Below, piece by piece: positions 3,001-45,047 of a stretch of DNA of 64,000 nucleotides; position 1 is the first letter of the stretch, and the number at the start of each line of letters is the position of its first letter. Source of the DNA: an uncultured Planctomycetales bacterium (GTDB taxonomy: Bacteria > Omnitrophota > Gorgyraeia > Zapsychrales > JAHFFX01); contig CAZTCI010000001.1 in assembly GCA_964612665.1 (NCBI GenBank), positions 712,624 through 776,623 on the forward strand. Direction: 5' to 3'. The notes under the pieces are model-generated. The model had not been told where the DNA came from and searched no databases. It was given only the letters and a program-made list of their open reading frames with translations. The translations under genes and the position numbers were made by a program.

Positions 3001-6000
3001 TCAGTTGGTTTTTCACCTTCAGCTAATTTTTCTAAATAAGGCTGCGCTGTAATCCGATCAATGTTACGATCAACGATTTCAGAACCATGGCCAAATAAAA
3101 TAGGAATACCTTTTTCACCGCTTGTTCCGCCAAAAATTTCGGCTTTGACTTTTTGTACAGGGACTGAATCTCCTTGTTCAAGTCCTATATGTGTCAACAC
3201 TGAGTTAGCTAACTCTTCGGGCGTTGATGATTCGATTGTCCCTTGAGCATTGTGAAAAATATCGTCGCCTTTTTCTGAAGCAACAAATTCACCTTTGCCG
3301 TTGTAATGTCCTGCAACATATGTATGGCCTGTCCAGCGTAAAACCGTTTTGTCCTGCGAATAATTCATAGCCATGGCCACTTTGGTCAAGGCAGCTTTAG
3401 TCTTATCTTCGATGACTTGGCCGTCCTTTTTAACTAACGTTTCCTTATTACCGCTGGTGTATATAACATTCACATTAGAAAAATAAATTCCGGGATCTAT
3501 ATCGGTTTTAAGAATATCTTTTCCTTCTTCCGATTTATCTTTTCTTAAGGTTATATATTTAATTCCCTTTTCACTTTTCAATTCCTCTTTTCGACCATAG
3601 AGTGGTTCTTTTAATGGGTTATAACCCCAATGTTGGTCGTCGATATATAGCTTACTACCATTCCCAAAAATAACTTCGCCGCCGGGAAGCTCCATAAAAT
3701 CCTCAGGCTTAGCCAAATTGATACTAAACAATTCAGGGGCGAGACTTCCAATCCCGGGAGCAAAATATCCAAACATTACCTCCATGGCCACATCTGGAAT
3801 TTTTCCTCCTTGTGAACCACCCATTGAACGAGCAAAGAAAAGAGAATTAGCTTCAGGGTTCTTATCTTCAGAGTCATAAACTAAAACAGGATTAAATGTA
3901 TAGCCCTCCAACTTGCCTCTATCATCGACCTTCAGTTCTAAAGTCGAACTCTTTTTTCCTCCAGAAGTTTCAGCTTCACCCGCTTTGGCATAACCTCCTA
4001 GCACTTTTTGATCATTAATAAATAAAGCTGAAAACATCTTGCCGGTAATATTGCTCTGTTTATTAATTTGTTCTGGACCCACTGTAGTCCCCAACCATTG
4101 GGTCGCAAGCCCTTCACCTGGAAAATTATTAGTTAGATTGAGAGTATTAAAAACATTTTCAGCTTCATCAGAATTTTTATCCGACTGTTCGAGCGCAACT
4201 TTCGTCGCATTTTTCGACTGAAGCGGTAGCCATGTTTCTTTGTTCCAGACTACATTGGTATTTCCATTTGGTTGGGGCATATAATAGAAAAATGTGCTGT
4301 CGAGAATGTTTTCTTTTTTACCATCTTCCTTTGTGACAGCAAGACCGCGATTCGATGTATTTTCCTGAAAATAAATTTTTCCATTAGAGTCGCCTTCTTG
4401 AGCTAGAAAAGATACGGTGGTATTAATGCCATCCCCTTGCGCAAAAAGTTTCGCCACGCCACTCGAAGTCAACGCCAGTCCAGCGGCTGCTGGAGACATC
4501 GCGGCATTGACAACTTTGGCTTCTTGAGGATTTTCTTCGCCGGGATTAATTTGACCAAAAATATTACGCAATGCCTTAACCTGCGCCAACGCTCCGGCCT
4601 GAGCAAAATAATTACCCGTCGCTATTAAACCGATTGTCTGCCCGCCGGGAAGAGAATAGCGGTCCACTGAAAAATCAAACTGCGGGCCTAAGTTATCGTT
4701 ATTAAATCCTATGGTTCTGTTGAAATGAATGTCGTGTGCCAGTTCCTCTGTTTTGTAAACCAATTTTTCAAAAGGTACCATTTCTGTTCCCGAAAGCATC
4801 CAATCATCCTTCACTTGAACATTAGCTGCTTCCTTCTCAGCGTCGGCGCGTGCAAGGCCCGCTTTATCCATTAAAAATTTAACTTTCGTTTCTTCTAAAG
4901 GCTCATTCGTACTTTGATTTAGAACCATTGTTACATATTGCGGGGTCGTCTGTCTCGCCTCGCCGATCATGCGCGTTAAATTTTGCACGCCTCCATTTTG
5001 CTGGCCGTTAATGTCAAAAACTTGTTGGGACAATAAAGATCGAGTGGACGAACCTTTGTAAGCAACAGTTAAAGCGTTCGTTGTTTGAGATTGACCTAGA
5101 AGCGCACCTAAAAATGGGCTGCCTAAAACGGGCAGGGCTTGAGTGTTCGCGGCTTTAAACCAAAAATTAAATTCTCCGCCGTTATTAATAATTGAACGGA
5201 TCAAATCGGGGCTGACTGTTCCTGTCAAAACAGGTGAGCTTCCCATAATCGACTGGACGGTTGGTATGATTCCTCCGTTATCTTTAAAAGGTTGTCCATC
5301 CGGACTAACAAGCACCGTTGGCAAGTTAACAAGGGCAGGACCAGAGGCAGAAATGCTCTGCAACTTATTAATCAATTTATCTAATTCTTTAGAAGATATT
5401 TTCTCGAGATCTTCAGGAGTGGCGTTATATTTTTGTTGCAATCGATTTAAGACAGCCTGTTTATCTGATCCTGATCCTGGTCGCAATTGAATTAACAGAC
5501 CCGCCAATTCTTTTGCCTGTGCCGGGCTCAAATAAACTTGCACACCGACCTTAGCTAAATCCATCCCCAACTTGGCAAAATCACCAGCATTGCCTGCTTT
5601 CCCATTAAATAAACTTAAATTCCAAACCTCGTTCCCATTTTTATCCTCGGCGACGTTCCCTAAAACATTTTTAGTCCCCAGCAAATATCTCAAACCAACT
5701 AAATTAACCGCCGTCATTTTACTTCCATCAGGACCGACGTTGGTCGCCCATGCCACGCGCCACTTTTTTCCGTCGTAACTAGGAATCCAACCGAGCCGGC
5801 GCGCGGTCATTCCCCATCGAGTTACGTCTATGAGCGGGGTCAAACCATATTCCAAAGCGGTCCTAACATTGGTGACATTGCCTGCGGGCAAACTGACATC
5901 TGTCAGATATTTCATCGGACCAGTACCGGGATTGATGACTGTAAAAAGTTGTTGAAGATATTCTTCTTGCAGTTTCTTTTTGGTGACAGGGGTGTCTGGT

Positions 6001-9921: not shown

Positions 9922-10806
9922 CTATTGTTTAGTCAGCTGGGCGAGAGGATTATTTTCAACGAAATCGAGGAATATTGGGCCCGCCACCAAGATACCTACA
10001 ACTGGGAAGATAAAAAACAAAAGTGGGACAAGCATTTTAAGAGGCGCTTTCATGGCCAACTGTTCCCCACGGCGAAAACGGGCTAGCCGCATGTCTTCCG
10101 ATAAAATATTTAAAGCTTCAGCGACCGAGGTTCCCATCTTGTCCGCCTGGATTAACGTTCTGGCCAGCGTTGAAAGATCCGGGAGGTCATACTTTACCGC
10201 CAAATCTTTAATGGCATCACGCCGCGCTTTACCGAGATTAATTTCTTGCATGACAGTATTAAACTCGCGAATAATAACAGATGGCGGCGATTTTTCAACA
10301 ACCCATTTCATTGCCAACATAAAGTCCAGCCCGGCATTAACACAAAGGCGGAGCAAATCAATCGCATCAGGCAATTCTTTTATAATGGCGCTTTTAATCT
10401 TTTTAATTTTACCTTTGAGCCAAAACTCCGGAGCCATATATGCGATTCCGAAACAGCAGGCCAGCCAAATAATAAACATCTGCGGACTTACCATATTAAA
10501 GGTCAGAATAATAAAAAAAACAAAAACCAATTCCTTGACCAAAAAATATTCTTCAGGCGTCATGTTGACATGAGCGATTTCCAAATCTTTCAGCATTCTG
10601 ACCCGAACCGGCCCCATTGTAAAAGGCTTATTAATAAGGGCGAGCTTTCTAATAAAAGAAAGAATCGATCTTTTTCTTTTTAAAGCCCCGACCTCAAAGC
10701 CCGTAAACCCCTGCAACCGCGGCCGGCTTTCCCACTCTATCGGCGAGACGCCCAGTATAAAACTAAACACCGAGATAAATACCATCATAGAAAAAACTGT
10801 AATCAT
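9922..10806 (-). CDS. tadC: Flp pilus assembly inner-membrane platform protein, TadC/TadB family (T2SS F domain)
   Basis: 294 aa, multiple TM segments; GspF/TadB-C-like cytoplasmic domain (…AIIKELPDAIDLLRLCVNAGLDF…); adjacent to second T2SSF paralog. Confidence 0.75.
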   Translation of the reverse strand: MITVFSMMVFISVFSFILGVSPIEWESRPRLQGFTGFEVGALKRKRSILSFIRKLALINKPFTMGPVRVRMLKDLEIAHVNMTPEEYFLVKELVFVFFIILTFNMVSPQMFIIWLACCFGIAYMAPEFWLKGKIKKIKSAIIKELPDAIDLLRLCVNAGLDFMLAMKWVVEKSPPSVIIREFNTVMQEINLGKARRDAIKDLAVKYDLPDLSTLARTLIQADKMGTSVAEALNILSEDMRLARFRRGEQLAMKAPLKMLVPLLFFIFPVVGILVAGPIFLDFVENNPLAQLTKQ

Positions 10807-10818
10807 ATTTTCCTCACT

Positions 10819-11682
10819 TTAAAAATTCTTAAAGGTGCTGATCTTCCAAATAAAAAAAGCACCGATGATTTCTGAAAAAAAGGAATAAATCAACATCGCC
10901 CGGCCCAAAGACGACTTCATCATATGGATTAAAAAATCCGGTTTTGTCGACTGAACAATAATAAGAAATCCTATCGGCAAACAGGACATGACAATGCCTT
11001 GAATTTTTCCCTGCAATGTCAATGTATCGATATTTTGCTGGATTTTTTTATTTTCGCGAATGGTGTTTACGATGCGCGTAAAAATTGCCGGCAGATTGCC
11101 TCCCGTTTCGCGCGCCAAAAGAATCGCCGTAATGGTTTGCTGAAGTGCCGGCGAAGGCATTCTTTTATATAAATGATTGAATGCCTCGTCGAGAGCCACT
11201 CCCATTTTATTTTCACTTAAAACCATGCCGAATTCCTGATCAATCGGCTCCGGCATTTCCTCGACGACCGCTTCCATCGCTTGAACCAAACTCAATCCAC
11301 CTCGAAACGAACTCGACATAATCATGAGTGCGTCGACCAGTTGATTGGCAAATTTTTCTTTTCGTTTGCTGATCAGCATTTTGGCATAAAAACCGGGCAA
11401 TATAAAACCAATCATAAAAAGAGCAATGACACCTATGAGCCGGATAGCCGGTGGAAAAACTATAAAACCGATAATGGCCCCAATGACAGGCGCCAACAAT
11501 GAAGCGCCCGTCATTTTTTTGGAATCGGGTTTCATTAACATCCGTTCCATCTTAGTCGCAAATGTAGGGGCTGCGCGCCTTTCACCAATCACAACAGCAC
11601 GATTCGCAAAAAGGGGCATGGCCGTATAGCCCAAAATAAATACTGAAAGGAATATAAAAAAGAGGAGTATTGGAATGGCCAT
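10819..11682 (-). CDS. tadB: Flp pilus assembly inner-membrane platform protein, TadB/TadC family (T2SS F domain)
   Basis: 287 aa; TM helices plus T2SSF-like domain (…FANQLVDALMIMSSSFRGGLSLVQAME…). Confidence 0.75.
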   Translation of the reverse strand: MAIPILLFFIFLSVFILGYTAMPLFANRAVVIGERRAAPTFATKMERMLMKPDSKKMTGASLLAPVIGAIIGFIVFPPAIRLIGVIALFMIGFILPGFYAKMLISKRKEKFANQLVDALMIMSSSFRGGLSLVQAMEAVVEEMPEPIDQEFGMVLSENKMGVALDEAFNHLYKRMPSPALQQTITAILLARETGGNLPAIFTRIVNTIRENKKIQQNIDTLTLQGKIQGIVMSCLPIGFLIIVQSTKPDFLIHMMKSSLGRAMLIYSFFSEIIGAFFIWKISTFKNF

Positions 11683-18149: not shown

Positions 18150-18662
18150 TTAACGGTAACGGTTATCGGTTTTTTCAAAATTACTCCATGCCTCAGCCAA
18201 TTTATAAATCTGGCGACCAGATTTATCGTAAGCATCTATCAATTCATCGCAAAGTTTTATATCTACATTCTGTGGATAAATATCTCTACTTTGACTCAAA
18301 CTTACAATCATTTCATTAGATTCAGCCATTGCATCATCGAGATATTTTTGAAAGCCAGCTTTTTGATGCCGCTTTGCATATCCTTCAGCTATTAACCGCG
18401 GAATTGCTTTGGAAGCTCGGCGGAGCTGATCTATTATTGGCCTTTTCCTTTCCAAAGAAAGGTTGTTCTTTTCGTCATCGAAGAGAAAAGGCCTAATATT
18501 GAGTTTTGTTGCATCCTTTGGATTTACAAAACTCAATAAATCATCTTCTTCGCATTTTGGCAGACAGGGAAGAATCTTTTGCATAACAGTGGTCATTGAT
18601 TTATAACTATCTTGATAAACTGTTAAATCTCTAAAGCTGGTAATTCGCTTCTTTTCTTCCAT
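18150..18662 (-). CDS. four-helix-bundle protein (23S rRNA intervening-sequence protein / bAvd-like family)
   Basis: SFRDLTVYQDSYK … DQLRRASKAIPRLIAEGYAKRHQKAGFQKYLDDAMAESNEMIVSL matches the conserved QLrRAavSIpaNIAEGygR…F…A.GS..E core of this family. Confidence 0.65.
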   Translation of the reverse strand: MEEKKRITSFRDLTVYQDSYKSMTTVMQKILPCLPKCEEDDLLSFVNPKDATKLNIRPFLFDDEKNNLSLERKRPIIDQLRRASKAIPRLIAEGYAKRHQKAGFQKYLDDAMAESNEMIVSLSQSRDIYPQNVDIKLCDELIDAYDKSGRQIYKLAEAWSNFEKTDNRYR

Positions 18663-22192: not shown

Positions 22193-22390
22193 TTATGGTG
22201 ATAATGGCCGAGAACCAGAAAGTCTTATTGACATGTTGTTCATGCCATTTGTACCTTGAGTCAAGGTAGCGTTAAGGCTAGTCTGGAAAATCCCAGTTTT
22301 ACTGGCCAAAAAGCCAAGTAAAACGACTACAACGGCCGTCACCAAGAGAATGTACTCCAGCGTTGATTGACCTCTTTTGTTTTTCAACAT
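22193..22390 (-). CDS. Flp-type pilin paralog B (65 aa, classic Flp length)
   Basis: MLKNKRGQSTLEYILLVTAVVVVLLGFL; AAGGAGG RBS 8 nt upstream. Confidence 0.7.
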   Translation of the reverse strand: MLKNKRGQSTLEYILLVTAVVVVLLGFLASKTGIFQTSLNATLTQGTNGMNNMSIRLSGSRPLSP

Positions 22391-22419
22391 TTATATTCCT
22401 CCTTGAACAAATAATGACG

Positions 22420-22584
22420 TTAATTATTGGCGAACTCCTCTTCAACCACCTTTTCGGTTGCCTGCACGGAACGGAACACGTAGGTGCTCATTGCGACCAT
22501 TGCAGCTGAGACTAAAGCGACAACGACGGCATATTCAATTAGGCTTTGTCCTTTTTTGCTTCGTAGTGTTCTTAAATGCCGCAT
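22420..22584 (-). CDS. Flp-type pilin paralog A (54 aa, classic Flp length)
   Basis: internal Met gives MRHLRTLRSKKGQSLIEYAVVVALVSAAMVAM…; track extension to 22686 runs through a terminator hairpin and is rejected. Confidence 0.65.
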   Translation of the reverse strand: MRHLRTLRSKKGQSLIEYAVVVALVSAAMVAMSTYVFRSVQATEKVVEEEFANN

Positions 22585-22672
22585 TGTGTTTTTCCCACGT
22601 GTTAAAAGGTGATCGTTGCCATCCTCTTGTGCAACCACAAGCAGGAGCTCCACGACCAGGCTGTATAAAAAA

Positions 22673-22698
22673 ACCCTTGAACACAATTGTGTTCAAGG
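22673..22698 (-). terminator. perfect 26-bp palindrome CCCTTGAACACAATTGTGTTCAAGGG followed by T7 on minus strand (intrinsic terminator, possibly also operator)
   Basis: stem 11 bp/loop 4; minus strand continues TTTTTTTATACAG; a related hairpin cccttgaacgctgtcaaggg lies at ~22839-22860. Confidence 0.6.
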
Positions 22699-22907
22699 GT
22701 AGAGAACATAGATAAAGTAGATATAAAATATCTACAGTATTTGATACATATTTTTTTGATATTTGGGCGCATGTTTTTGTGTCTTTGATCAGACGATGAA
22801 AAACATATAATGTAAGACGGTACAAATATACCATGTGCCCTTGAACGCTGTCAAGGGAAAGAGTTTAAAAAATTCGACATATTAACAAATTAAAACACCC
22901 TTTCACA

Positions 22908-24572
22908 CTAAATTAGGACATCCATAGCAAAAAAAGACCCAGACGGGTCTTGAATATTCATATTTTTAAGCATTTTGATCGCAAATTCAAGCTCTTTACG
23001 ATATTGATAATCAGTGGGAACTTGTAATTTCACAATAATCTTTTGACCTATTTTTTGGAAACGGCCCGCCAATTTGTAAAAACGTTCACACATTTGATTA
23101 AAATCAAGTTCTTTGCAATTTTGGCTAAAAAAGTGACATTTGGCATACTCATTTAAAGCTAAGCTTATAACAAACGCATTTTCCAAGAGAGTGGGCACTT
23201 GCATGGGGTCGGATGCTACCATTTTTTCGTAAAAATCGAATGGAATTATTGAATTTTTTATTTCTTTATTGTCCAAACTGTCATTTTTATTTAAAAGTAA
23301 TGAAAAATTCACATCTTCTTTATAATCAAAGTTAAGATTATTAGTAAAAATCAAGCTACTGACCGCGTTAACCTTATTTTCTTCGCTTAAAATAATCAAT
23401 TTTAGAGGAATTTCCTTTGTCACACCCAAAGTTTCACCTTGAACTTCATGCTCACCGACATAAAAAGTTTTGTCTAAATCCTTGCAATAAAATTTTTTTA
23501 ACTTTATGTCTTGCAGAATATTAGAAACGCTACTTATTCTTTCAGGTCTTGTCACAAATAAAAATTGTCGTTTCTTTTTGGGGATTACATTAAATTGGGC
23601 CAATTCGTTGTCATTTTGATCCAAAATTTCTAGTTTGGACATTTCATTAGAAATTCCTTCTAAAGATTCCACTAATTTAAGCTCATTAGGTATATTTTCA
23701 GCCAATCCTTTGTCATATATGGTAATGTAATCCAAATTTGTAATAAAACGTCGTGTTACTTGTTTAATAAATCTTCCTAAAGAAAGGCCTGCGCCTCTTT
23801 CGCCAGATTGAAAAACCACCTGTTCTCTAGCGTCTAAGAAAACCTCTGTTTTGTCTTTTAAAGTTATCTTAAGCGAATTTGCTTCAGCAAAAATTTGTGG
23901 AATCTCATTGCCAACAACAAGAGACAATGTTCTCAAATCAGAAATGCTGTCTAGCAATTTTAAGAGCCTATCAAAACGAATCTTCTCTATCCCACTAAGT
24001 AAAGCCAACCCTGTTCCTTTATACGAATTGAAATCCTCAGGTTTGTTAATACCAAAAGACGGTGCCCATAACAAAACTTCACCAAGTTGGTTCACCTCGT
24101 CGGGATTAAAAATGTTTCCTTCCAAAAATTTTTCTAGAAATCTTCCCATTAAAAATCGTTCACCCAAATCCCATTCGGCAGCCTTTAAAAAAAACAGCCC
24201 TAATCTATCATGCATGGATTCGATTTTTTCTGCTTTTAAATCTTTTTTAGAAGATGTCCAAACGAGAGGGGATTCTTTTTTAGGCGCAAGGAGCAGGTTA
24301 GGTATGGTGAAAAGCTGTTGCTTTTTCTCGACGGGAATTTGAAATTTTTTGACTTTTTTATCTGTAAGGACGGCTGTGCGCCCAACTGGATTGCTCAACT
24401 GAGCGTCTTTGATGATTTGGTTTATGGCGGATTTTGAAACATTGATTTGAAATTTTTCTTCAACAATAGCAACTAAACGCCGGCAGCTTAATTGAGCGTC
24501 AGATTTTTTCTGATCAATAATAAAATCAATGACTTCTTTTCTTAATTTATAAACAACGCCCATGGAAACCAT
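22908..24572 (-). CDS. AT-rich hypothetical protein (554 aa) with N-terminal helix-turn-helix; ORFan-like
   Basis: Strongly K/N/I-rich and much lower GC than its neighbours. N-term LRKEVIDFIIDQKKSDAQLSCRRLVAIVEEKFQINVSKSAINQIIKD resembles resolvase/transposase-type HTH. No catalytic motifs recognised. Confidence 0.5.
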   Translation of the reverse strand: MVSMGVVYKLRKEVIDFIIDQKKSDAQLSCRRLVAIVEEKFQINVSKSAINQIIKDAQLSNPVGRTAVLTDKKVKKFQIPVEKKQQLFTIPNLLLAPKKESPLVWTSSKKDLKAEKIESMHDRLGLFFLKAAEWDLGERFLMGRFLEKFLEGNIFNPDEVNQLGEVLLWAPSFGINKPEDFNSYKGTGLALLSGIEKIRFDRLLKLLDSISDLRTLSLVVGNEIPQIFAEANSLKITLKDKTEVFLDAREQVVFQSGERGAGLSLGRFIKQVTRRFITNLDYITIYDKGLAENIPNELKLVESLEGISNEMSKLEILDQNDNELAQFNVIPKKKRQFLFVTRPERISSVSNILQDIKLKKFYCKDLDKTFYVGEHEVQGETLGVTKEIPLKLIILSEENKVNAVSSLIFTNNLNFDYKEDVNFSLLLNKNDSLDNKEIKNSIIPFDFYEKMVASDPMQVPTLLENAFVISLALNEYAKCHFFSQNCKELDFNQMCERFYKLAGRFQKIGQKIIVKLQVPTDYQYRKELEFAIKMLKNMNIQDPSGSFFAMDVLI

Positions 24573-24794
24573 TTAGCAATTTCAAATTTTTATAGGGATT
24601 TTCAGTATAAGCATGGGGACTTTTTCAGTCAAGAATTTGTTCTTTCTTCTTAAAAACAATTTTCTGCCCGAAGAAAAAATGCGCATAAAATCTTGCAATC
24701 ATAAAGCATTCATTGTTAAATGGTAATCGTAATGTATTTTTAAATTGATACTGAAGCCATAAATAAAATTCAGCCTAATAAAAGGTTAAATTAA

Positions 24795-25064
24795 ATGTCC
24801 AAATGTCCTTATTGTTTTGAAGAACTCCCAGGCAATTTTCTGGAAAAATTTTCAAAAAAAAATTCCCCAGAAGCGCCGCAATGTCCACATTGTTCACAAT
24901 TTATTATTGATCCACTGGTTAACGTTGATTATCCCGGCGTGGATAAAAAGAAGTGCCTTTACTGCGGAATGTTGATTTTAACAGAAGCACGTTTTTGTCG
25001 TTTCTGTCAGAAATGGCTTGATGAATTGGATGCGGCGGCGGATGATGCAGAAAATTTGGAATAA
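24795..25064 (+). CDS. double zinc-ribbon protein (89 aa)
   Basis: CPYC…CPHC and CLYC…CRFC pairs; acidic C-terminus. Confidence 0.5.
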   Translation: MSKCPYCFEELPGNFLEKFSKKNSPEAPQCPHCSQFIIDPLVNVDYPGVDKKKCLYCGMLILTEARFCRFCQKWLDELDAAADDAENLE

Positions 25065-25075
25065 AAAGTAGCGGG

Positions 25076-25426
25076 TTAAGCAGCTAGAATTTGAATAGAA
25101 TCGCCTAATTCAGTTTTGGATTTTGAAATAGTTTTAACAGGAAGTTCAATCGCGCGGTTGGCTTTTAAAAAAATAGGGCTGAGCCGAAATGGTTGTATCT
25201 CCTCGAGTAATCCCACCACTTTTCCAGAGTTATCGATAAAAATAACATCAATAGCAAATCGCATAAACAACATGTGAATTGACTGACAATGAGTAATGAT
25301 CAGCCCTTCTCCGTCGACGATAGATTGTCGGTTTAATAAACCAACCATACGGGTTCTGAAAGTATCCGCGAGGACTGCGCGGTCAGCAATAATTATTTTG
25401 CGGGTGGAATTAAATACGGTAAGCAA
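25076..25426 (-). CDS. DUF192 (COG1430) domain protein
   Basis: …ADTFRTRMVGLLNR…GEGLIITHCQSIHMLFMRFAIDVIFIDNSGKVVGL…AIELPVK matches DUF192 core. Confidence 0.6.
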   Translation of the reverse strand: MLTVFNSTRKIIIADRAVLADTFRTRMVGLLNRQSIVDGEGLIITHCQSIHMLFMRFAIDVIFIDNSGKVVGLLEEIQPFRLSPIFLKANRAIELPVKTISKSKTELGDSIQILAA

Positions 25427-25434: not shown

Positions 25435-27603
25435 TTATGGTGTAAAAATGTTTTTATCCAAAGCGATGCCTTTAGAAGAAAAATCTTCGTAACATTTGGG
25501 AACATAACCTGTGGTTTTATAGTCACCTAGAATTTTCCCGTCGCTGTCTGTTCCTAGACGTTCAAAAATAAAAATGTCGCGTAAATCCAACTGGTGTGTC
25601 TTCTGATCAACGCCGGCCACTTCGGTTATGCCGGTTATTTTTCTTGAACCATCTGAAAAACGGTTGACTTGAACGATGATGTCGATGGCTGAGCCGATCA
25701 TTTCATACATGGCGCTTAAGGGAAGTTCAACGCCCGTTAAAAGCATCATGGCCGTTAAACGAACCAAAACATCGCGTGTGGTATTGGCGTGGATTGTCGT
25801 CAAGGAACCATCGTGACCTGTGTTCATAGCCTGCAACATATCTAATACTTCTGCGCCGCGGCACTCACCAATGACAATCCTATCAGGACGCATACGAAGC
25901 GTATTCACAAACAAATCACGAATAGAAACAGCGCCTTTTCCTTCAATGTTCGCCGGGCGTGCTTCCAACCGGCCCCAATGACTGTACGGTTTAAGCCGCA
26001 ATTCGGCGGCGTCTTCTATGGTGATAATGCGTTCTCCGTCGGGAACAAAAAGGGAAATAATGTTAAGCAATGTTGTTTTACCGGCGCCTGTACCGCCGGA
26101 AACAATAATGTTACTTCTTCCCAAAACTGCGGCATGAAGAAAATCAGCCATCGGCTGAGACAAACTCTTAAAGCGATGGATCAAATCGTCAATCGTATAA
26201 CGTTCTTGGCTGAATTTACGGATCGTGACCATTGGTCCATTTAAAGATAACGGACGAATAATAGCATTAATACGAGACCCGTCGGGCAAACGCGCATCAA
26301 CCATCGGTGTCGACTCATCAATACGCCGGCCCAAGGGCGCAACAATACGGTCAATAACCGAACGAACCTGTTGTTCGGAAATAAACCGCCGATTGGTTAA
26401 AATTAATTTCCCATGTTTTTCAATGTAGATCTCATCCTTCTTATTAACCATGATATCGGTGACGTCTGAATCTGCCAAAAACTCTTCGATAGGACCAAGC
26501 CCTAGCGTTTCGTTTACAATTTCTTTAACCAGCCGGGTTCGCTCTTCATGGGAAGAAATGATAGCGCCCGCTTCCTCGGCGAGAATATTGCTGACAATTT
26601 TTTCAGTTGTCTCACGGATTTTCTGAAACTGCTGCGGGTTCGCCAAGGCTTCCGGAGTCAGGTCTTTTAAATCCATCTTGCCTAACAACTTTTCATGGGT
26701 CTTCTTTTTAAGCCGAACGACTTCGTCTTCTTCGTTAACATTGTAAATTTTATCTTTCCCTTTTTCCTGTACGCCTTGAGCAATGCCAAATTTTTCCCAA
26801 AACTCACCCGGCTTACCTAAATCTTCTGTTGTTCTTAATTTAGCTATGTCGGTCGCCTGCACAAAAAGTCCAGGCGCATTTAAATCGTTGACCATCTTAT
26901 TAAAAGCCGCCGCGACTTTGCTGCGCGGACTATCAACGACACAGGGAACGCCGCGGTTTAAAGCCATTCCAACCGCTTTTCCGTCGGAAGGAATTTGGGC
27001 AAAAATTTCGCAAGCCAAGGCCGCCTTAACTTCCTGCCAGGCAACCCCGCCATAACTTTCAGCACGGTTTAAAATTAACCTGACCATTTTGAGAGGGAAA
27101 TGCAGGCTCTGTAAAACTTCTAAGGCCGTTCGGATTTGATAAACAGCCAGAATATCTGGTGTCGCAATAAGAAAAATTAGATTGGAATAATCTAAAATGG
27201 TGATCAGCGTCTCGCTAAAGGCCTTACCGCCGTCGATAATAATGTAATCGTAAAGCTGGCCAACTTTTTTAAGAAAGGGTTTAATATTGTCAGGTGTAAT
27301 GTGACCAACTTGGCGGACGTGCGTGACGGCGGGGAGAAAATCAAATCCAGCAGAATGCGCCACAACATATCTTTTAATAATCGTGGGGTCGTTGTCTTTT
27401 TCTATTTCAGCCAAAAGATCAACGATAGCTAGACGGGGGGACAAATTGAGCATCCGGGCCATATCCTGAGCGGCCTGGAAGTCCATGTCCAAAAGCAAAA
27501 CCTTGTGGCCGCTCAACGCCAATGCCGTCGAGAGATTGACACACACAAAAGTTTTGCCAACCCCACCTTTATTACTAAAAACTGCTACGCTTTTTGCAGG
27601 CAT
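25435..27603 (-). CDS. tadZ-tadA: fused TadZ/CpaE-like ParA-family ATPase (N-term, about 260 aa) + TadA/CpaF secretion ATPase (C-term); 722 aa
   Basis: N-term deviant Walker A VFSNKGGVGKT (MinD/ParA/CpaE). C-term SGGTGAGKTTLLN…ITIEDAAEL…TGHDGSLTTIHANT (VirB11/CpaF family). One uninterrupted ORF. Confidence 0.8.
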   Translation of the reverse strand: MPAKSVAVFSNKGGVGKTFVCVNLSTALALSGHKVLLLDMDFQAAQDMARMLNLSPRLAIVDLLAEIEKDNDPTIIKRYVVAHSAGFDFLPAVTHVRQVGHITPDNIKPFLKKVGQLYDYIIIDGGKAFSETLITILDYSNLIFLIATPDILAVYQIRTALEVLQSLHFPLKMVRLILNRAESYGGVAWQEVKAALACEIFAQIPSDGKAVGMALNRGVPCVVDSPRSKVAAAFNKMVNDLNAPGLFVQATDIAKLRTTEDLGKPGEFWEKFGIAQGVQEKGKDKIYNVNEEDEVVRLKKKTHEKLLGKMDLKDLTPEALANPQQFQKIRETTEKIVSNILAEEAGAIISSHEERTRLVKEIVNETLGLGPIEEFLADSDVTDIMVNKKDEIYIEKHGKLILTNRRFISEQQVRSVIDRIVAPLGRRIDESTPMVDARLPDGSRINAIIRPLSLNGPMVTIRKFSQERYTIDDLIHRFKSLSQPMADFLHAAVLGRSNIIVSGGTGAGKTTLLNIISLFVPDGERIITIEDAAELRLKPYSHWGRLEARPANIEGKGAVSIRDLFVNTLRMRPDRIVIGECRGAEVLDMLQAMNTGHDGSLTTIHANTTRDVLVRLTAMMLLTGVELPLSAMYEMIGSAIDIIVQVNRFSDGSRKITGITEVAGVDQKTHQLDLRDIFIFERLGTDSDGKILGDYKTTGYVPKCYEDFSSKGIALDKNIFTP

Positions 27604-27607: not shown

Positions 27608-29827
27608 TTATTTTTGCAAACTAAAAACGATTGGTATTGTTAAATCCAATTCTTGGAGGTTAGTATCCGCAGGAAACGCGGTGTAAGGGGCCAGGCTTTT
27701 GGCGGTTGTAAGAGCAGCTTCATCGAAGATGTCGTGGCCAGAGGACTCTTTTACAGCAGCATAAGCTAAAGTCCCATCGCTTAAAATATGCAGCATCAAT
27801 TTTACGGTGCCTTCCCAATTGTATTGCCTTGCCTCGTCGGGATAATTGATGGCACTAGCGATTTTTTGTTGGACGGCGGCAGCGTAATTTTGACTTGATG
27901 AACTCTTAGCAGCCGCCGGTTTTGAAACTTTCTGACTATAAACAATAGGAACGTTCAACACCAAATCATCTAAATTTAATTTCAAAGGAAACGCGTCATA
28001 AGGTGAAAGAACTTGTGCCGTATGAAGCGCATCTTTATCAAAAATATTGTATCCTGAGGATTCTTTAATTTGTGAATCAGCTAATGAACCATTTTTTAAA
28101 AGATGTAAGCTCAATGTAACCGTTCCCTCCCAGCCTTTTTCTTTAGCTTCCGGCGGGTAGGTGATAGCCTTAGAAATTTTTTCTTGGATTGTTTTTGAAT
28201 AAGCGTCGATCAGGTCCTTTTGTTCAGCATTATTTCCGGATGCCCCTGCTTGTTCTCCTGAAGATTGATCTGTCGCTTCGGCGGTGGCATCTTGAAGCGG
28301 TATGGCATCAGCATTTTCAGACATTGAGCTTTGTGTTGGCATTCTCGACGGAGGGACTGATGTTTCAGATGTCATTGATGAATCTGATGACGACACTGAA
28401 GCGGCGTCGGATGTGGAAGATTCCGTTGTCTTAGCAGCAGGCGGAGGAACCTCTTTCGTTTTTTGCCGAAGAATCGTAGGCGTTACGGAAATAATTAACT
28501 CAGTGTCTTGATTGTTAGACGAAGGCGTTTTACGGGATCGGAAAACCGCACCCACAATAGGAATATCGCCCAGGAAAGGAACCTTGCGGACTGTTTCTCC
28601 CTCAACATGCTTAATCAAGCCAGCCAGAATAATCGTCTGCTGGTCGTCTAAAAGCAGCTGCGTTTGTGCCGTGCGGGTAGCAAAGGCAGGAACTTGCCCG
28701 ACGGAATGCGTTGGATCAACTTCGCTGACCTCGGTATTCATGACGACATTGACTTTATCCTGTTGGATTGTGGGGGTGATCGTTAGACTGATACCAAAAT
28801 CTTTAAACTCAACATTAGTCTGCACATTACCACCAACGGTCGTAGATGTCGTACTGATTGGAACCTGTCCTCCGACGAGAAAACTGGCCTCCTTACCGCT
28901 TTTGACGACCAATTTAGGTTTTGAAAGGACCCGGCCTTTTCCTTCTTCGACGACTGCATTAATAACGGCAGAAACAGATGTTGTTCGTCTAAGTTTGGCT
29001 ACTTTAAAAATGCTGTCTGCAAAAGGAATAGAACTTTGTGCTGTGCTGTCGACAAGCCCTTTTCCAGGCAACCCCTCGGTAATATTAATTTGATCAACCC
29101 AGTCTAAGCCGATGCTTTTGGATGCGGTGGCATTTAACTCGGCGAGCTGAACATCAACCTGAACCAAGTCGTTGCTGATATCTTCACGCAAAAGATTAAT
29201 CACATTGGTCATGTAAGGATGAATAATAGCGTCGGCCTCGGCTTTCTTTTGTTCACTTAAATTACCCGAAGCCACGACCTTACCTTCGTAAAGGTTCACT
29301 TCAAGATTAACTCCGTCGATCTTGGCGACTTTGAAAAGTTCTTCCAGCCGGGTTTTTAAAATATTTAAATCCTCGGCGTAAACACGGATCATTATTGTCC
29401 GCTTGCCATATTGGTCCCACACAAATAAAGCTGATTGTCCTGGTTTCTTGGCCAGCAAGAGGATTTCATCATTGGTGACATTCGCGATGTCCGCAATGTC
29501 AGGATCACTTACAGAAACACGCACTAATGAATAGGCTTTAATCGGAGTGAGTTCTCCTTTAAGCATGTGAACTTCGTCTTGATGTAGGATGTCAGGAGGA
29601 AGGTCTTTGGAGTCTTGCTTAGCATCTTGTTTCGTATCTTGGCTGGCGGTCTTGTCCTCGCCAAAAATTTCTTTCGGAGCAATCCATAGAGTTTCCATTA
29701 AAATGAAACCCATCAAAACAACCCACGCACAGCTCTTATTGATTTTTTTATCAAAAGCTCGGTGATTTAGGCTAGATCTCTTTTCCTCGACGGAATAAAA
29801 ATCTATAAGCTGTTTTTTATTTTTCAT
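27608..29827 (-). CDS. cpaC: Flp pilus secretin CpaC/RcpA-like with two C-terminal TonB C-terminal (TonB_C) domains; 739 aa
   Basis: Secretin core …VRKVPFLGDIPIVGAVFRS…ELIISVTPTIL. Two repeats at the C-terminus, YPPEAKEKGWEGTVTLSLHLLKNGSL…ESSGYNIFDKDAL and YPDEARQYNWEGTVKLMLHILSDGTL…ESSGHDIFDEAAL, each fit the TonB_C signature. Confidence 0.75.
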   Translation of the reverse strand: MKNKKQLIDFYSVEEKRSSLNHRAFDKKINKSCAWVVLMGFILMETLWIAPKEIFGEDKTASQDTKQDAKQDSKDLPPDILHQDEVHMLKGELTPIKAYSLVRVSVSDPDIADIANVTNDEILLLAKKPGQSALFVWDQYGKRTIMIRVYAEDLNILKTRLEELFKVAKIDGVNLEVNLYEGKVVASGNLSEQKKAEADAIIHPYMTNVINLLREDISNDLVQVDVQLAELNATASKSIGLDWVDQINITEGLPGKGLVDSTAQSSIPFADSIFKVAKLRRTTSVSAVINAVVEEGKGRVLSKPKLVVKSGKEASFLVGGQVPISTTSTTVGGNVQTNVEFKDFGISLTITPTIQQDKVNVVMNTEVSEVDPTHSVGQVPAFATRTAQTQLLLDDQQTIILAGLIKHVEGETVRKVPFLGDIPIVGAVFRSRKTPSSNNQDTELIISVTPTILRQKTKEVPPPAAKTTESSTSDAASVSSSDSSMTSETSVPPSRMPTQSSMSENADAIPLQDATAEATDQSSGEQAGASGNNAEQKDLIDAYSKTIQEKISKAITYPPEAKEKGWEGTVTLSLHLLKNGSLADSQIKESSGYNIFDKDALHTAQVLSPYDAFPLKLNLDDLVLNVPIVYSQKVSKPAAAKSSSSQNYAAAVQQKIASAINYPDEARQYNWEGTVKLMLHILSDGTLAYAAVKESSGHDIFDEAALTTAKSLAPYTAFPADTNLQELDLTIPIVFSLQK

Positions 29828-29852: not shown

Positions 29853-30650
29853 TTATAATTCCCGGCCCCCGCGAAATATTTGAATAACCGGCTTAGCTTC
29901 TTCAGCGGCTGGTTCGAATGAACTGGTTTTCGCCTTTGTCCCGCCAAGTTCAGTACCTTGTCTTTCCAAAACATAGTCCGCGAGCGTTTGCCAATTATAA
30001 GGAGGTACCATAAATGATTCTGTTTCGGAAGGAGAACGTAACGCCAACTGGAGCTTACCATTTTGCTGAACAAAACTCAGCAGCCCTGCTTCTTCTGGAT
30101 CCAGCGCAAAAGTCACAGTCAAATCCTTGGTCTGCTGCTGGGCTTCATAAACACCAGGAGAATTCACATTCGTCCCGACAGCTAAGACTTGAACGTTTTG
30201 AAAAATCATGGCTGTAATTGTTTGGGCTGGTTGATATCCGACTTGCTGAGAACCGGGAGGTGTCATCTGCGCGAGAATGTCGACGAAATCGCCGGGATTG
30301 ATTAAACCACCGACGGCGGCGAGAGAATCAATTCGAACAGTGACGGCTCTCTTGCCCGCAGGTGTTTTGACAGCTAATGATGATTGGGGAATAATGGCAG
30401 CCGGCCCTTTTTCGGCGGCGGCTTTTTGCGCGGCAGCAATTGCCTGTTGGCGCACAGTGCCTAATTCTGTTTTTAATGCGGTGATTTCTTCTTTGAGGGG
30501 TTCAACATTTTTTTGAATTTCTTGAGAGGCAACTTCTTCTTTTTTAGTGATTTCACTTTGAATATAATTTCCGGCTCCGATGGCGGCGATTAATCCTATG
30601 GTCAACGCGATCACAATGATAACAATCGTTCTTCGCTGTTCATTGGTCAT
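29853..30650 (-). CDS. cpaB: Flp pilus assembly protein CpaB/RcpC (SAF domain)
   Basis: N-terminal TM, coiled region, …AVTVRIDSLAAVGGLINPGDFVDILA… typical of CpaB. Confidence 0.7.
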   Translation of the reverse strand: MTNEQRRTIVIIVIALTIGLIAAIGAGNYIQSEITKKEEVASQEIQKNVEPLKEEITALKTELGTVRQQAIAAAQKAAAEKGPAAIIPQSSLAVKTPAGKRAVTVRIDSLAAVGGLINPGDFVDILAQMTPPGSQQVGYQPAQTITAMIFQNVQVLAVGTNVNSPGVYEAQQQTKDLTVTFALDPEEAGLLSFVQQNGKLQLALRSPSETESFMVPPYNWQTLADYVLERQGTELGGTKAKTSSFEPAAEEAKPVIQIFRGGREL

Positions 30651-31633
30651 AACTTGACTCCTTCTAAAAGGGATTCATTACGTGTGACTGGTTTCTTTTG
30701 TTCCAGTTCTTTAAGATAACTTTCAACGGTTTGCTGCTGTTTAATTTGGAGCAATCCGTTTTTAATATCGTTTTTCACGTCGAGGAAACCTAATTGTTTC
30801 CCGCCCTTTTTCTCCTCAAGTTTTACAATCGAGTACCCTTCCGATCCTTTAAAAACCGCGCTGACATCACCGACTTCCAAATTCAAAACCGCCGCGGCCG
30901 TGGCTTGATCTAAATCAGCTCCCTTAATTAAACCTAAATCTCCGCCTTTAGCCGCTGTTTTTCCTTTGGAACGTGCTTGGGCAGTTTGCGCAAAGTCTGC
31001 GCCTTTTAAAACATCAACCAGAATATCTTTCGCCTCGGGTTGAGTAGGAACAACGATCGCGCGCAAATGATATTCGGCCGGCTCAACAAACATATTTTTG
31101 TTTTGGTTAAAATAATCTTGGACTTCGTTGTCCGTGACGGTGACACTTGTGATCAAATTATTAACATTTTCTCGGACAAGAAGCGTCCGACGGAATTCGC
31201 TAACCGCATCTTGGATTTCTTTTTTATTTCCCAAACCTTTTTCTTCAGCATCCATGACCATCAACTGCTGCCTGACCAATTCATCTAATACGAGCTTCTT
31301 GGATTCGGGTTTCTTTATGTCAAAATCAGGCACGACGTCTTTTAAATTCTTAAGCCGGTCTTTAAATTCATCGACTGTGATTGACCAGCTGCCGACACTT
31401 GCCAGGACATCGGCTTGCGTGTTTAAAGCCGCAGCTGCGCTGGCTTGGTCTTTAATTTTTTCCGTCGAGGTTTTAACCGGCGGTGGTTGAACTGCTTTGT
31501 CTTCGCTTGTGCTGGCTGTTGTTTTTTTGTTTTTGTTAAAAATTGATTCGATCGTTGAAGAAATTTGATCACAGCCAGCAATAGTTAAACAAAATAAGGC
31601 GGCCGCGACAATAAAAATTCTATCTTTTTTCAT
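30647..31633 (-). CDS. lipoprotein peptidyl-prolyl isomerase (SurA/PrsA-like, parvulin-type)
   Basis: lipobox LTIAGC; SurA-N-like region and rotamase segment …GGDLGLIKGADLD…GYSIVKLEE. Confidence 0.6.
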   Translation of the reverse strand: MKKDRIFIVAAALFCLTIAGCDQISSTIESIFNKNKKTTASTSEDKAVQPPPVKTSTEKIKDQASAAAALNTQADVLASVGSWSITVDEFKDRLKNLKDVVPDFDIKKPESKKLVLDELVRQQLMVMDAEEKGLGNKKEIQDAVSEFRRTLLVRENVNNLITSVTVTDNEVQDYFNQNKNMFVEPAEYHLRAIVVPTQPEAKDILVDVLKGADFAQTAQARSKGKTAAKGGDLGLIKGADLDQATAAAVLNLEVGDVSAVFKGSEGYSIVKLEEKKGGKQLGFLDVKNDIKNGLLQIKQQQTVESYLKELEQKKPVTRNESLLEGVKL

Positions 31634-36250: not shown

Positions 36251-36324
36251 CGACCCCAGCGGGATTTGAACCCGCGCTGCGAGCTTGAAAAGCTCGTGTC
36301 CTGACCAGGCTAGACGATGGGGTC
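36251..36324 (-). tRNA. tRNA-Glu (anticodon TTC)
   Basis: The reverse complement folds as a cloverleaf: GACCCCA acceptor, CGAGC-TTTTCAA-GCTCG anticodon arm, GCGGGTTCAAATCCCGC T-arm. Confidence 0.85.
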
Positions 36325-39018: not shown

Positions 39019-41846
<2,828 letters not shown>

Positions 41847-44386: not shown

Positions 44387-44677
44387 CCATTTGTTAATAT
44401 ATCAATATTATATAAGTTATTCAATTTCAATATATTGTAAAAAACCACTTTATTAGTTAACAAGTTATCCACAACCTGTGTAATATAAATTGAGTTATGG
44501 AAAAATTTGGATAAAAAGTGAGCACTATTATAACAAAGAAATTTTTGATTTCAATTTATTTAAAAAAATTAAAATTGATATTTAGATATTCCACAAGTAA
44601 TTGAAAAACAACTTTTTTTATCTTAACTAAAATGGAAATATCTTGACTACGAAAAAACCTATGTTATAATCGTCCCC
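44387..44677. promoter_or_regulatory. oriC region (AT-rich, DnaA boxes) plus rpmH sigma70 promoter
   Basis: perfect TTATCCACA at 44465-44473, TATTCCACA at ~44588; TTGACT(44643)-16 nt-TGnTATAAT(44665) upstream of rpmH; second DnaA-box cluster (TGTGGACAA) in dnaA-dnaN spacer 42881-43039. Confidence 0.7.
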
Positions 44678-44815: not shown

Positions 44816-44834
44816 ATAGACCTTTCTTGCCGCT

Positions 44835-45041: not shown

Positions 45042-45047
45042 AAAATT

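Follow-up and report, generated by a model that had tools for sequence, protein, structure and literature searches.

A helix-turn-helix gene fixed in the Omnitrophota Tad pilus locus: likely transposase ancestry and a candidate role in pilin regulation

Introduction

In the window studied here an AT-rich gene separates the machinery genes of a Tad locus from its pilin genes. This gene is a native, vertically kept part of the Omnitrophota-type Tad/Flp pilus locus, in which its slot is flanked by the machinery block and the pilin promoter. Its 554-aa product has an N-terminal helix-turn-helix (HTH), and the features described below strongly suggest that it descends from an IS4/Tn5-type DDE transposase. 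We lean towards the combined reading that this native transposase descendant now serves as a sequence-specific DNA-binding regulator of the pilins, the regulatory part being inferred.

Omnitrophota are uncultured and mostly ultra-small bacteria. The case made from their genomes for a life as predators or parasites rests mainly on their Tad pili, for which a role in attaching to prey or hosts has been proposed (PMC10066038). By the window we mean the whole stretch of DNA that was analysed, 64,000 nucleotides (64 kb) long; contigs identical to its own occur in the source samples SRR12313477-79.

Results

The gene, its family and its neighbours

Features in and around the gene are collected in Table 1. 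Since all homologues begin with MGVVYKL, translation probably starts at the ATG at 24563, for a product of 551 aa. Upstream, DUF192 closes the machinery block PpiC-CpaB-secretin-CpaE/F-DUF192; downstream, the first Flp-type prepilin gene heads an array of seven pilin-like genes.

Table 1. Features of the HTH gene and its surroundings in the window
Feature	Position	Strand	Details and basis
554-aa HTH protein gene	22908..24572	-	ORF call; family; synteny; AF2 model
Three-helix HTH, Tc3/IS630 type, codons 12-56	24405..24539	-	HMM, structure match
Basic motif VGR(R/P)...KKF.IP..KK, codons 64-84	24321..24383	-	Alignments A1, A2; pLDDT profile
Body, codons 119-553	22914..24218	-	AF2 model, fold/HMM comparison; no Pfam family
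Candidate sigma-70-like promoter of HTH gene	24604..24632	-	TTGACT-17-TATACT, 10/12; consensus scan only
Divergent 89-aa double zinc-ribbon gene	24795..25064	+	Four CxxC; acidic C-terminal tail
DUF192 gene, conserved upstream neighbour	25076..25426	-	Pfam DUF192 E 8.6e-18; synteny
Pilin-operon promoter	22825..22854	-	CCCTTGACA -35, 18-nt spacer with TG, TATATT -10; 11/12; scan
Hairpin 2, imperfect palindrome	22838..22858		CCCTTGACAGCGTTCAAGGG on minus strand; -35 hexamer and spacer
Hairpin 1	22666..22700	-	Perfect 28-nt palindrome 22673-22700, 12-bp stem, 4-nt loop, then T7
Structured leader, about 234 nt, promoter to first Flp pilin ATG	22585..22818	-	RNA fold z = -4.6
First Flp-type prepilin, 54 aa	22420..22584	-	...KKG/QSLIEY...; Pfam Flp_Fap E 1.4e-5; ORFs

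The original prediction had called the gene an ORFan. A word-index search indeed finds only 6 homologues, and with a 44-sequence profile it returns the same 5 proteins with no addition; an exhaustive profile search, however, exposes a family of 833 representatives (50 %-identity clusters) at E <= 1e-3, 553 of them at <= 1e-30, nearly all full length, so the label does not apply. The reading frame is intact and full length across the family, which spans 179 species-level genomes; most of the 80 loci listed carry an Omnitrophota label.

The position of the gene is constant. DUF192 precedes it in 67 of the 71 testable loci and the Flp pilin array follows it in 63 of 65, at a protein identity of 22-31 %; the identical slot holds three homologues whose identity is 26-28 %. 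Copies were seen almost only in Tad context, with two Tad-context loci in 2 MAGs. Among 80 metagenome loci picked via CpaE/F alone, the gene is found in the 3 that rank first by CpaE/F identity (49-57 %); in none of these does TadB/TadC directly follow the ATPase. No match to the family was found in the remaining 77 of these loci, and most of the 27 mapped among them show the conventional CpaF-TadB-TadC order. The presence/absence polymorphism that had been put forward as a check is thus not seen: the gene is in the slot of nearly all related loci and is present in all 3 Omnitrophota-type loci reached independently through CpaE/F.

The divergent gene with a 2x(CxxC…CxxC) pattern that was predicted next to the HTH gene is there. 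Its motifs fall at C4/C7, C30/C33, C54/C57 and C68/C71, and the Pfam double zinc-ribbon model DZR (PF12773) scores E 7.6e-6 and 26.4 bits, below its cutoff of 27.3 bits. A homologous divergent DZR gene accompanies 25 of 71 related loci, and the homologue in locus L005 keeps all four CxxC motifs.

Pilin promoter and leader

Transcription of the pilin genes would begin at a strong promoter and run through a long, structured leader that contains a terminator-like hairpin; in some lineages a c-di-GMP riboswitch lies in this leader. The promoter, of the form TTGACA-N-TGnTATA(C/T)T, is conserved in 36 of 42 related loci, mostly 12-120 nt past the stop codon of the HTH gene. Leaders of the relatives are long (160-750 nt), and 18 of 37 contain a hairpin followed by a T run, mostly 100-210 nt past the -10 element, where 1.1 would be expected. 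In the window this element is hairpin 1, which lies inside the leader and has 6 GC pairs in its stem; by sequence it is a predicted intrinsic terminator.

Two related hairpins between the gene and the pilin array, as originally described, are present and share the 9-mer CCCTTGAAC, whose three exact copies in the 64 kb all lie in these two hairpins (0.43 expected). The 9-mer was not seen to be a general feature, a point against the regulatory reading. It was also considered as a dispersed binding motif and rejected, with 16 one-mismatch matches against 12.8 expected, which apart from the three exact copies show no clustering. Hairpin 2 overlaps the pilin-operon promoter. Inverted repeats over the -35 element are not enriched across 37 promoters (arms >= 5 in 12 of 37, against 10.7 +/- 2.6 in shuffles), so the palindrome was dropped as a conserved operator and hairpin 2 is idiosyncratic. 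Both hairpins are on the pilin side of the gene and nothing comparable is found on its other side, which disposes of the description of the gene as bounded by palindromes; the hairpins are the promoter and the terminator-like element of the pilin leader, not the borders of an island.

Rfam gives nothing for the window leader at E <= 1 apart from a sub-threshold PyrR hit (24.6 bits against 54) that we take as chance, and, as to c-di-GMP-I (RF01051), no model of the GEMM clan matches at E <= 10 in 22300-25100. A c-di-GMP-I riboswitch is recognized in the leader of the relative L062 (43.6 bits, gathering score 35); scores for L077 and L049 are below that threshold. Two further candidates were rejected: a 56-aa small ORF in the window leader (22602-22772), which lacks the SD found in related 'type B' leaders, and a 7-bp hairpin with T run at 22934-22951, which falls within the last part of the coding sequence (conserved D.xG codons) and was taken as a coding by-product.

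The HTH and the regulatory reading

The N-terminal HTH, predicted as resolvase/transposase-like, is present and is Tc3/IS630-like. It has a three-helix DNA-binding fold whose nearest structural matches are DNA-bound transposase or transcription-factor domains. HTH_32 matches 35 of 44 family members and HTH_Tnp_Tc3_2 matches 31 of 44 (E <= 1; best member E 2e-7); the window protein itself stays below the cutoff, at 14.1 bits against a gathering score of 33.7, and the family consensus reaches 23.7 bits. NCBIfam matches among the 44 members are to IS630 (30/44), IS481 (11/44), IS4_1 (2/44) and IS701_3 (1/44). No other segment of the protein is as conserved as the HTH region, with its invariant K9, K22, R31, S46-K47-S48 and G64-R65, and its recognition-helix region has invariant basic and polar residues (SKSS.N..LK, GR). 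The basic motif that follows opens a poorly predicted linker, with pLDDT < 50 at residues 63-74 and 89-114.

The conservation of the HTH above all other segments, together with a conserved promoter directly downstream in 36 of 42 loci, leads us to infer a regulatory role; the 'locus-specific regulator' of the original prediction is still the best functional reading. The HTH protein would be a sequence-specific DNA-binding regulator controlling transcription from the strong pilin-operon promoter that begins shortly past its own stop. The dead transposase body could serve as a module for dimerisation, for DNA synapsis or for binding a signal or partner, and a candidate for its partner or modulator is the divergent double zinc-ribbon protein, whose gene accompanies about one locus in three. 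Further downstream, the terminator-like hairpin in the long leader may gate pilin output once more, a leader position taken in some relatives by the c-di-GMP-I riboswitch.

Less probable, though to be taken seriously, is a non-regulatory function: the HTH protein would be a cytoplasmic Tad accessory (scaffold, chaperone or localisation factor contacting CpaE/F or the platform) that uses its HTH for protein contacts or nucleoid anchoring. The gene sits within the structural cluster, on the same strand and directly after CpaE/F-DUF192, a location that is compatible with a role in pilus assembly and that we count against the regulator; the body of the protein, large and conserved as it is, shows no signature of an enzyme or of ligand binding, and no operator-like motif conserved across pilin promoters was found among 37 promoters. 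Against an accessory stand the HTH itself, which is the best conserved segment and whose nearest structures are bound to DNA, and the absence of a transmembrane segment and signal peptide.

The body and its transposase ancestry

The body, of about 430 aa, is predicted to begin with a helical domain and to end with an alpha/beta domain, with a beta-alpha core between them that looks RNase-H-like; landmarks of the core are D247, position 287, a beta-rich insertion (323-410) and T410-N411. The family has been named only 'helix-turn-helix domain-containing protein'. The AF2 model used here, built from the 44-sequence alignment, has pLDDT 84.8 and pTM 0.76 (an earlier 6-sequence model had pLDDT 64.5). 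None of the DDE families of Pfam is matched by the 44 members or by their consensus, and sequence searches of the PDB with profiles A1 and A2 gave no match. Compared by fold, the body comes closest to Tn5 transposase in both methods used, but weakly. The body-only consensus matches the IS4 transposase model NF033592 (E 4.4e-4; 19.5 bits against a cutoff of 115) across a TN...Y..RW motif, and hhalign pairs this motif with Tn5 LLLTS...YTHRWRI in an alignment that is not significant.

Across 138 members T410 is kept in 109, N411 in 134, Y/F426 in 134, R429 in 98 (R/K in 112) and W430 in 113; the window protein itself lacks the Y..RWP motif (L426, K429, N430, D431). By secondary-structure order and motif, D247 and positions 287 and 433 would correspond to D97/D188/E326 of Tn5. 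Position 247 is D in 129 of the 138, position 287 is mostly S/T/A/N (also G; D in the window protein) and position 433, the E of the IS4 signature, is mostly L/F. On this mapping two of the three catalytic positions are replaced in most members, and with the second Asp and the Glu gone transposition would be impossible.

Descent from an IS4/Tn5-type transposase is strongly suggested by the Tc3/IS630-like HTH, the basic linker, the predicted RNase-H-like order of strands and helices, the predicted beta insertion and the '(L/I)LTN ... Y-x2-R-W' signature taken together. The term 'degenerate mobile-element protein' was right as to ancestry (transposase HTH, IS4/Tn5-like body, broken triad) and wrong as to status: the gene is fixed and domesticated, not a decaying IS. 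It is improbable that the body is instead a new fold joined to a common HTH, its likeness in TN...Y..RW being convergence or chance. Three independent methods point to the IS4/Tn5 group over unrelated folds, individual members match the IS4_1 and IS701_3 models, and the order of strands and helices would place D247 and position 287 at D97/D188 of Tn5.

We regard as very unlikely a recombinase that still works, at least in part, and brings about phase or antigenic variation by rearranging the seven pilin genes of the array or their promoter. Such an activity would fit transposase ancestry, a place beside seven divergent pilin-like genes in tandem, the inverted orientation of the HTH gene relative to the rest of the locus in L056, the retention of D247 and the D at 287 of the window protein; it is contradicted by L/F at the Glu site and the loss of the second Asp in most members, by a constant promoter orientation (36/42) and gene order (63/65), and by the absence of inverted repeats around the promoter or the pilin genes.

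Low GC and native origin

The low GC of the gene, on which its reading as foreign DNA was founded together with its K/N/I content, is real. GC is 0.338, 9 points below the surroundings (~0.43), and GC3 is 0.305, against GC 0.39-0.47 and GC3 0.35-0.45 for the adjacent Tad genes. The K+N+I fraction of 0.245 is at the upper end but not above that of two pilin-like genes (0.25 and 0.23), so the gene being richer in K/N/I than everything around it holds only in part. The dip nevertheless has parallels close by and in the family: the native core genes dnaA, dnaN, yidC and parA of the same 64-kb window have GC 0.31-0.33, and the orthologues show the same offset, with GC below that of CpaEF in 39 of 39 loci and GC3 below that of CpaEF and secretin in 36 of 37 (mean -8.7 points; window -11.8). 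Low GC is a trait of the gene family, not a sign of foreign origin.

No flanking inverted or direct repeats and no target-site duplication (TSD) were found around 22690-24800, where only AT-rich matches at chance level occur; the gene has no integrase or tRNA flank, the nearest tRNA being at 36251. Horizontal insertion is rejected on the conserved position of the gene across relatives. A recent AT-rich island or decaying IS between the Tad machinery and the pilin array, for which the GC contrast, the transposase-like HTH, the 6 word-index homologues and the two adjoining hairpins might speak, is scarcely credible and counts as already refuted by the synteny (67/71 and 63/65 at 22-31 % identity), besides which the orthologues share the low GC3, dnaA and dnaN are as AT-rich, TSD and inverted repeats are absent, both hairpins are one-sided, the family has 833 representatives, and across it the frame is intact and full length.

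Discussion

The protein resembles IS4/Tn5 (IS50) DDE transposases (NF033592; PDB 1MUH, 3ECP) in its N-terminal DNA-binding region and, as far as prediction goes, in the core behind that region, which would be RNase-H-like and carry a beta-rich insertion; the '(L)LTN/S' strand with 'Y-x2-R-W' some 15 residues further on is a probable further likeness. It differs in the replaced second Asp and Glu, in a fixed position without terminal inverted repeats or target duplications, in scores far under the family cutoffs, and in an HTH that is of Tc3/IS630 type where Tn5 has its own N-terminal domain. That HTH superposes on the DNA-binding domain of Tc1/mariner-IS630 elements (PDB 1U78; 0.9 A over 45 residues) and is likewise followed by a basic linker, but it is a single unit, not a bipartite paired-like domain, and the body is not a Tc1/mariner DD(E/D) core.

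To our knowledge, transposase domestication is documented mainly in eukaryotes. Domesticated transposases that act as DNA-binding or chromatin factors include eukaryotic ALP1/ALP2, CSB-PGBD3 and Kat1 (PMC7282668, PMC3459987, PMC4763223). As in these, catalytic residues have been lost and a DNA-binding domain kept, at a fixed position and under long-term purifying selection; in contrast, the present case is bacterial, lies within a pilus operon and has only a candidate partner and target. In our literature searches no counterpart came up that was both a bacterial DDE transposase and part of a pilus locus.

PprAB regulates Flp/Tad pili in Pseudomonas aeruginosa. In Pectobacterium flp/tad is under two-component control (PMC3767616). 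The HTH protein as proposed here would resemble such locus-linked regulators in being dedicated, encoded beside the tad genes and acting on the flp promoter; those are response regulators with a receiver, whereas the HTH protein lacks receiver, sensor and sigma-54 modules and shows no sequence relationship to them. The leader has its own parallels among type IV pilin genes under riboswitch or attenuator control, such as pilA1 of Clostridioides difficile with c-di-GMP-II upstream (reviewed in PMC6916266): the order of strong promoter, long leader, terminator and pilin gene is the same, and related Omnitrophota loci have a GEMM-I aptamer (RF01051) at this place, while the window leader has the terminator-like hairpin and no Rfam aptamer detected.

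More tentatively, and as a possibility rather than an expectation, an IS4/Tn5-like transposase may have been domesticated early in Omnitrophota into a dedicated DNA-binding regulator of the Tad pilus, working with a zinc-ribbon partner and a modular leader attenuator that would be a c-di-GMP riboswitch in some lineages and a terminator in this genome.

For the scanning of genomes the case is a caution that local AT-richness and few word-index homologues do not amount to foreign DNA. The Omnitrophota-type Tad locus has a fixed place for a large unannotated family, which numbers at least 833 clusters at 50 % identity, and the position of this family right before the pilin promoter makes it a concrete candidate regulator of Omnitrophota Tad pili. 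It is also a likely bacterial example of transposase domestication and, if the regulatory reading is true, would be a rare bacterial DDE transposase turned into the fixed transcription factor of a cell-surface machine.

THE SLOT OF THE 554-AA GENE

The Tad/Flp pilus locus fills the minus strand of the window from 9.9 to 32.8 kb (see table), and between its zinc-ribbon gene and its pilin array lies the AT-rich gene for a 554-aa protein that the original prediction took for an ORFan. A word-index search found only six homologues, two of which (26–28% identity) occupy the same slot in a syntenic Tad locus. An exhaustive profile search seeded with these six sequences recovered 833 cluster representatives at E <= 1e-3, 553 of them at <= 1e-30 and nearly all full length (550–650 aa), so the gene is no ORFan. 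With one genome scanned per species, the family turned up in 179 genomes. Of the 80 loci listed from that scan, the majority are labelled Omnitrophota or Omnitrophica, and about one-third ‘uncultured Planctomycetales’, with the same Tad locus; protein identity among species-level relatives is 22–31%.

When the window's Tad proteins were mapped onto 82 fetched loci, a same-strand DUF192 gene lay directly upstream of the family gene in 67 of the 71 testable loci, and Flp-like pilins directly downstream in 63 of 65. The divergent zinc-ribbon gene has a homologue in 25 of the 71; the divergent slot of one relative, L004, encodes an unrelated protein of 340 aa whose N-terminus has a hydrophobic segment resembling a signal peptide. 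Two loci show variant layouts: in L056 (10001-11671) the family gene points the opposite way to the remainder of the Tad locus but stays between DUF192 and the pilins, and in L084 (4453-10001) it lies ∼5.5 kb from DUF192.

CpaE/F served as the only query for an independent sample of 80 metagenome loci. In the three most similar in CpaE/F (49–57% identity), the family gene lies downstream of CpaE/F; DUF192 was detected in two of these, each time between the two genes. No family match was found in the other 77 loci, and most of the 27 mapped among these have the conventional CpaF-TadB-TadC order. We regard the 554-aa gene, with high confidence, as a native conserved component of the Tad locus.

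Features of the window, of the 554-aa protein (AF2 model) and of leaders in related loci
Feature	Position	Strand	Remarks
PpiC-type rotamase	30647-31633	-	First in Tad gene order
CpaB/RcpC	29853-30650	-	Tad locus
Secretin (CpaC/RcpA)	27608-29827	-	Two C-terminal TonB_C-like repeats (TonB_C domains) after a Ser/Thr-rich linker; same fusion in relatives
CpaE-CpaF fusion ATPase	25435-27603	-	Tad locus
DUF192 gene	25076-25426	-	Follows CpaE-CpaF
89-aa zinc-ribbon gene	24795-25064	+	Divergent; four CxxC pairs; near-threshold DZR match
554-aa gene	22908-24572	-	Between zinc-ribbon gene and pilin array
Hairpin 2	22838-22858		Over pilin promoter -35
Hairpin 1	22666-22700	-	In pilin leader
Seven Flp-like pilin genes	22584 down to 20073	-	Downstream of 554-aa gene
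461-aa minor-pilin-like protein gene		-	After the seven pilins
23S-rRNA-IVP/bAvd-like gene	18150-18662	-	Four-helix bundle; between 461-aa minor-pilin-like gene and 943-aa protein
Proteins of 817 and 943 aa	12344-17657	-	Without Pfam match; kept between pilin array and TadB/TadC in most related loci
TadB and TadC	9922-11682	-	End of Tad locus
ORF of at least 3083 aa	3-9251	-	Open at window's left end; adjoins TadB/TadC
tRNA	36251-36324	-
dnaN	41792-42880	-	Origin region
dnaA	43040-44386	-	Origin region
dnaA-yidC gap			660 nt; probable oriC site
yidC	45048-46700	+	Origin region
parA	46916-47728		Origin region
parB	47751-48593		Origin region
Three-tRNA cluster	51437-51972	+
6S RNA	58384-58545	+	60.2 bits
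Three-helix HTH	Residues 12-56
Linker	pLDDT < 50 at 63-74 and 89-114		Poorly predicted
Helical domain	Residues 119-230
Beta-alpha core	Residues 233-317
Beta-rich region	Residues 323-410
C-terminal part			Helical and alpha/beta
L062 aptamer	2444-2580		43.6 bits (gathering score 35, exceeded); then terminator hairpin
L077 aptamer	3009-3135		33.6 bits (below gathering score 35); then terminator hairpin
L049 aptamer	5567-5652		28.8 bits (below gathering score 35); then terminator hairpin

Elsewhere in the locus, a bAvd-like gene is also present in L004, where the match is faint; no reverse transcriptase was seen nearby. The only Pfam match of the large ORF is Peptidase_C39 (aa 227-313); giant ORFs beside pilus or secretion genes have been reported in Omnitrophota (bioRxiv 10.64898/2026.06.07.730766).

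BASE COMPOSITION

The features noticed originally are present, namely the low-GC gene, the four-CxxC zinc-ribbon gene and the two related hairpins, except that both palindromes lie on the same side of the gene. The 554-aa gene has a GC of 0.338 and a GC3 of 0.305, against 0.39–0.47 and 0.35–0.45 for its Tad neighbours. The same offset recurs in orthologues. Compared with CpaE/F, the family gene is lower in GC in 39 of 39 related loci (mean -5.3 points); compared with the locus as a whole, in 33 of 39 (Wilcoxon p = 1.6e-7). In GC3 it falls short of the CpaE/F–secretin mean in 36 of 37 (mean offset -8.7 points, range -18.7 to +4.3; window -11.8). The window's other AT-rich stretch (41.5–49 kb, GC 0.31–0.33) is the replication-origin region, whose genes at 41792-48593 have a GC3 of 0.21–0.28 and lie at the cumulative GC-skew minimum, so undeniably native genes match or exceed the AT-richness of the supposed island. 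We infer that AT-richness belongs to this fast-evolving family as a trait and does not point to foreign origin. With the slot kept across loci, and no inverted or direct repeats found flanking the gene, the original reading as horizontal transfer, or as a decaying IS, is rejected as very improbable.

PROTEIN ARCHITECTURE AND ANCESTRY

All homologues share the start MGVVYKL, which makes the ATG at 24563 the probable true start of the 554-aa gene. An AF2 model computed from 44 members of the family has good confidence (pLDDT 84.8, pTM 0.76); its linker opens with a conserved basic motif, VGR(R/P)...KKF.IP..KK. The HTH is the most conserved segment of the protein, with matches to HTH_32 in 35 of the 44 members (best 2e-7) and to HTH_Tnp_Tc3_2 in 31; among transposase models, IS630 is matched by 30 and IS481 by 11.

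Three independent lines of evidence from the family converge on, and point to, one transposase group. The NCBIfam models for IS4 and IS701 are matched by two members (best 0.002) and one member, respectively; a body-only consensus matches IS4 transposase NF033592 (E 4.4e-4) over ‘..aiLTN....sAeeIi.eYl.RWPn’; and hhalign, below significance, aligns the same stretch with ‘LLLTS..IDIYTHRWRI’, bearer of the YREK signature, in a Tn5 sequence checked against PDB. Secondary-structure order and motif suggest that D247 and positions 287 and 433 are equivalent to the Tn5 triad (D97/D188/E326). Among 138 full-length members the first Asp, D247, is retained in 129, whereas position 287, after strand beta-4, is S/T/A/N in most and the Glu position, 433, is L/F in most. 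The window copy is a divergent member that has also lost Y..RWP.

The description that fits the 554-aa protein best is that of a domesticated IS4/Tn5-like transposase, catalytically dead and bearing a Tc3/IS630-type HTH; its descent from a transposase is probable. The family resembles IS4 transposases in fold order and signature but scores under the cutoff, and an intact catalytic triad, mobility and terminal repeats are all missing; filing it as an IS4 transposase would be wrong. That the body fold has some other source, a question of ancestry only, is improbable. A recombinase still acting on the adjacent pilin array would suit the transposase likeness, and with the triad broken is highly unlikely.

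PILIN PROMOTER AND LEADER

The two palindromes once thought to bound an island lie on one side of the 554-aa gene. They share the 9-mer CCCTTGAAC, whose three copies in 64 kb (0.43 expected) all fall within them. Hairpin 2 coincides in part with a minus-strand promoter of the extended -10 type, close to consensus (CCCTTGACA, an 18-nt spacer with TG, and TATATT; 11 of 12 positions). Of 42 related loci, 36 carry the same promoter (TTGACA-N14-16-TGnTATA(C/T)T), mostly 12–120 nt past the stop of the HTH gene, and a leader of 160–750 nt then runs up to the first pilin gene. Across loci, the -35 shows no excess of overlapping inverted repeats, so the palindromic look of hairpin 2 is peculiar to the window genome. 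Hairpin 1, with a 12-bp stem, a 4-nt loop and then T7, lies 125–152 nt into the leader, with 82 nt left to the pilin ATG, and resembles an intrinsic terminator. A hairpin with a T run occurs in 18 of 37 leaders, usually 100–210 nt after the -10, against 1.1 in shuffled sequences. The window leader folds with z = -4.6 and has no Rfam family match.

The leaders of relatives are modular and form three groups. In the first, from related Omnitrophota Tad loci, a c-di-GMP-I-clan aptamer follows the conserved promoter and precedes both the terminator and the first Flp pilin gene; five further leaders (L036, L041, L042, L052, L059) align to c-di-GMP-I aptamers and are not called as such. The second (L005, L010, L011, L012, L019, L020, L043, L047, L082) has a hairpin with covarying stems and the loop AGCCACGGGA, conserved as (A)AGCCACGG(G)A, with an ATG 5–8 nt on and a terminator ∼60–100 nt on. 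This hairpin may be the SD and start of a small leader ORF running into the terminator, or may be an RNA motif related to the GEMM-I P2 region; at the aligned place the window reads AAAGACACAAAAAC. The third (L004, L006, L007, L008, L009, L021, L023, L028, L029, L034, L043, L063) has other conserved modules in common: a hairpin ACACCG-NAA-GGTGTTTT(T)A, a motif AATAGA(A)GCCC...GGG, and GGGCAAGGATTGTCTGTTGAACACTCAAGG directly ahead of the pilin start, which the window's GGCAACGATCACCTTTTAACACGTGGG (about 22590-22620, -) resembles. From promoter, terminator-like hairpin and modular leaders, it is probable that transcription reaches the pilin genes by way of a regulated leader; both palindromes would then be parts of this leader system, not an island border.

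A further terminator-like hairpin with a T run (AAGACCCGTCTGGGTCTT TTTTT; 22934-22951, -) falls inside the coding sequence of the 554-aa gene, in its final 15 codons, where it covers a conserved D.xG motif; it is probably a by-product of coding sequence.

PROPOSED ROLE

The family thus combines a conserved position, a conserved HTH, a broken triad and a conserved strong promoter immediately downstream. The 554-aa protein would bind DNA, either in or close to the pilin promoter or leader or in its own divergent intergenic region, and this binding would set pilin-operon transcription; the dead transposase body may provide dimerisation or synapsis, or bind a partner or signal, and the zinc-ribbon protein is a possible partner. 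We lean towards this statement as a whole, that of a conserved transposase-derived locus component that binds DNA and sets pilin-operon transcription. The narrower claim that the protein is a transcriptional regulator of the pilin operon is tentative. A non-regulatory accessory of pilus assembly would also sit among Tad genes; with the HTH the most conserved segment of the protein, we consider it unlikely. The original alternative of locus-specific regulator or degenerate mobile-element protein was thus partly right: transposase derivation is probable, and regulation stays at that tentative level.

Earlier work has described Tad loci in Omnitrophota and connected them with predation or parasitism (PMC10066038); neither that paper nor the others found mention the 554-aa gene. 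Known tad-linked regulators are response regulators (PMC3767616), and the domesticated transposases in our literature search results are eukaryotic. The 554-aa protein is a variant of two known kinds, the domesticated transposase and the locus-specific HTH regulator. It offers a conserved, unannotated and testable candidate regulator, of unusual evolutionary origin, for a pilus central to ideas about the Omnitrophota lifestyle.
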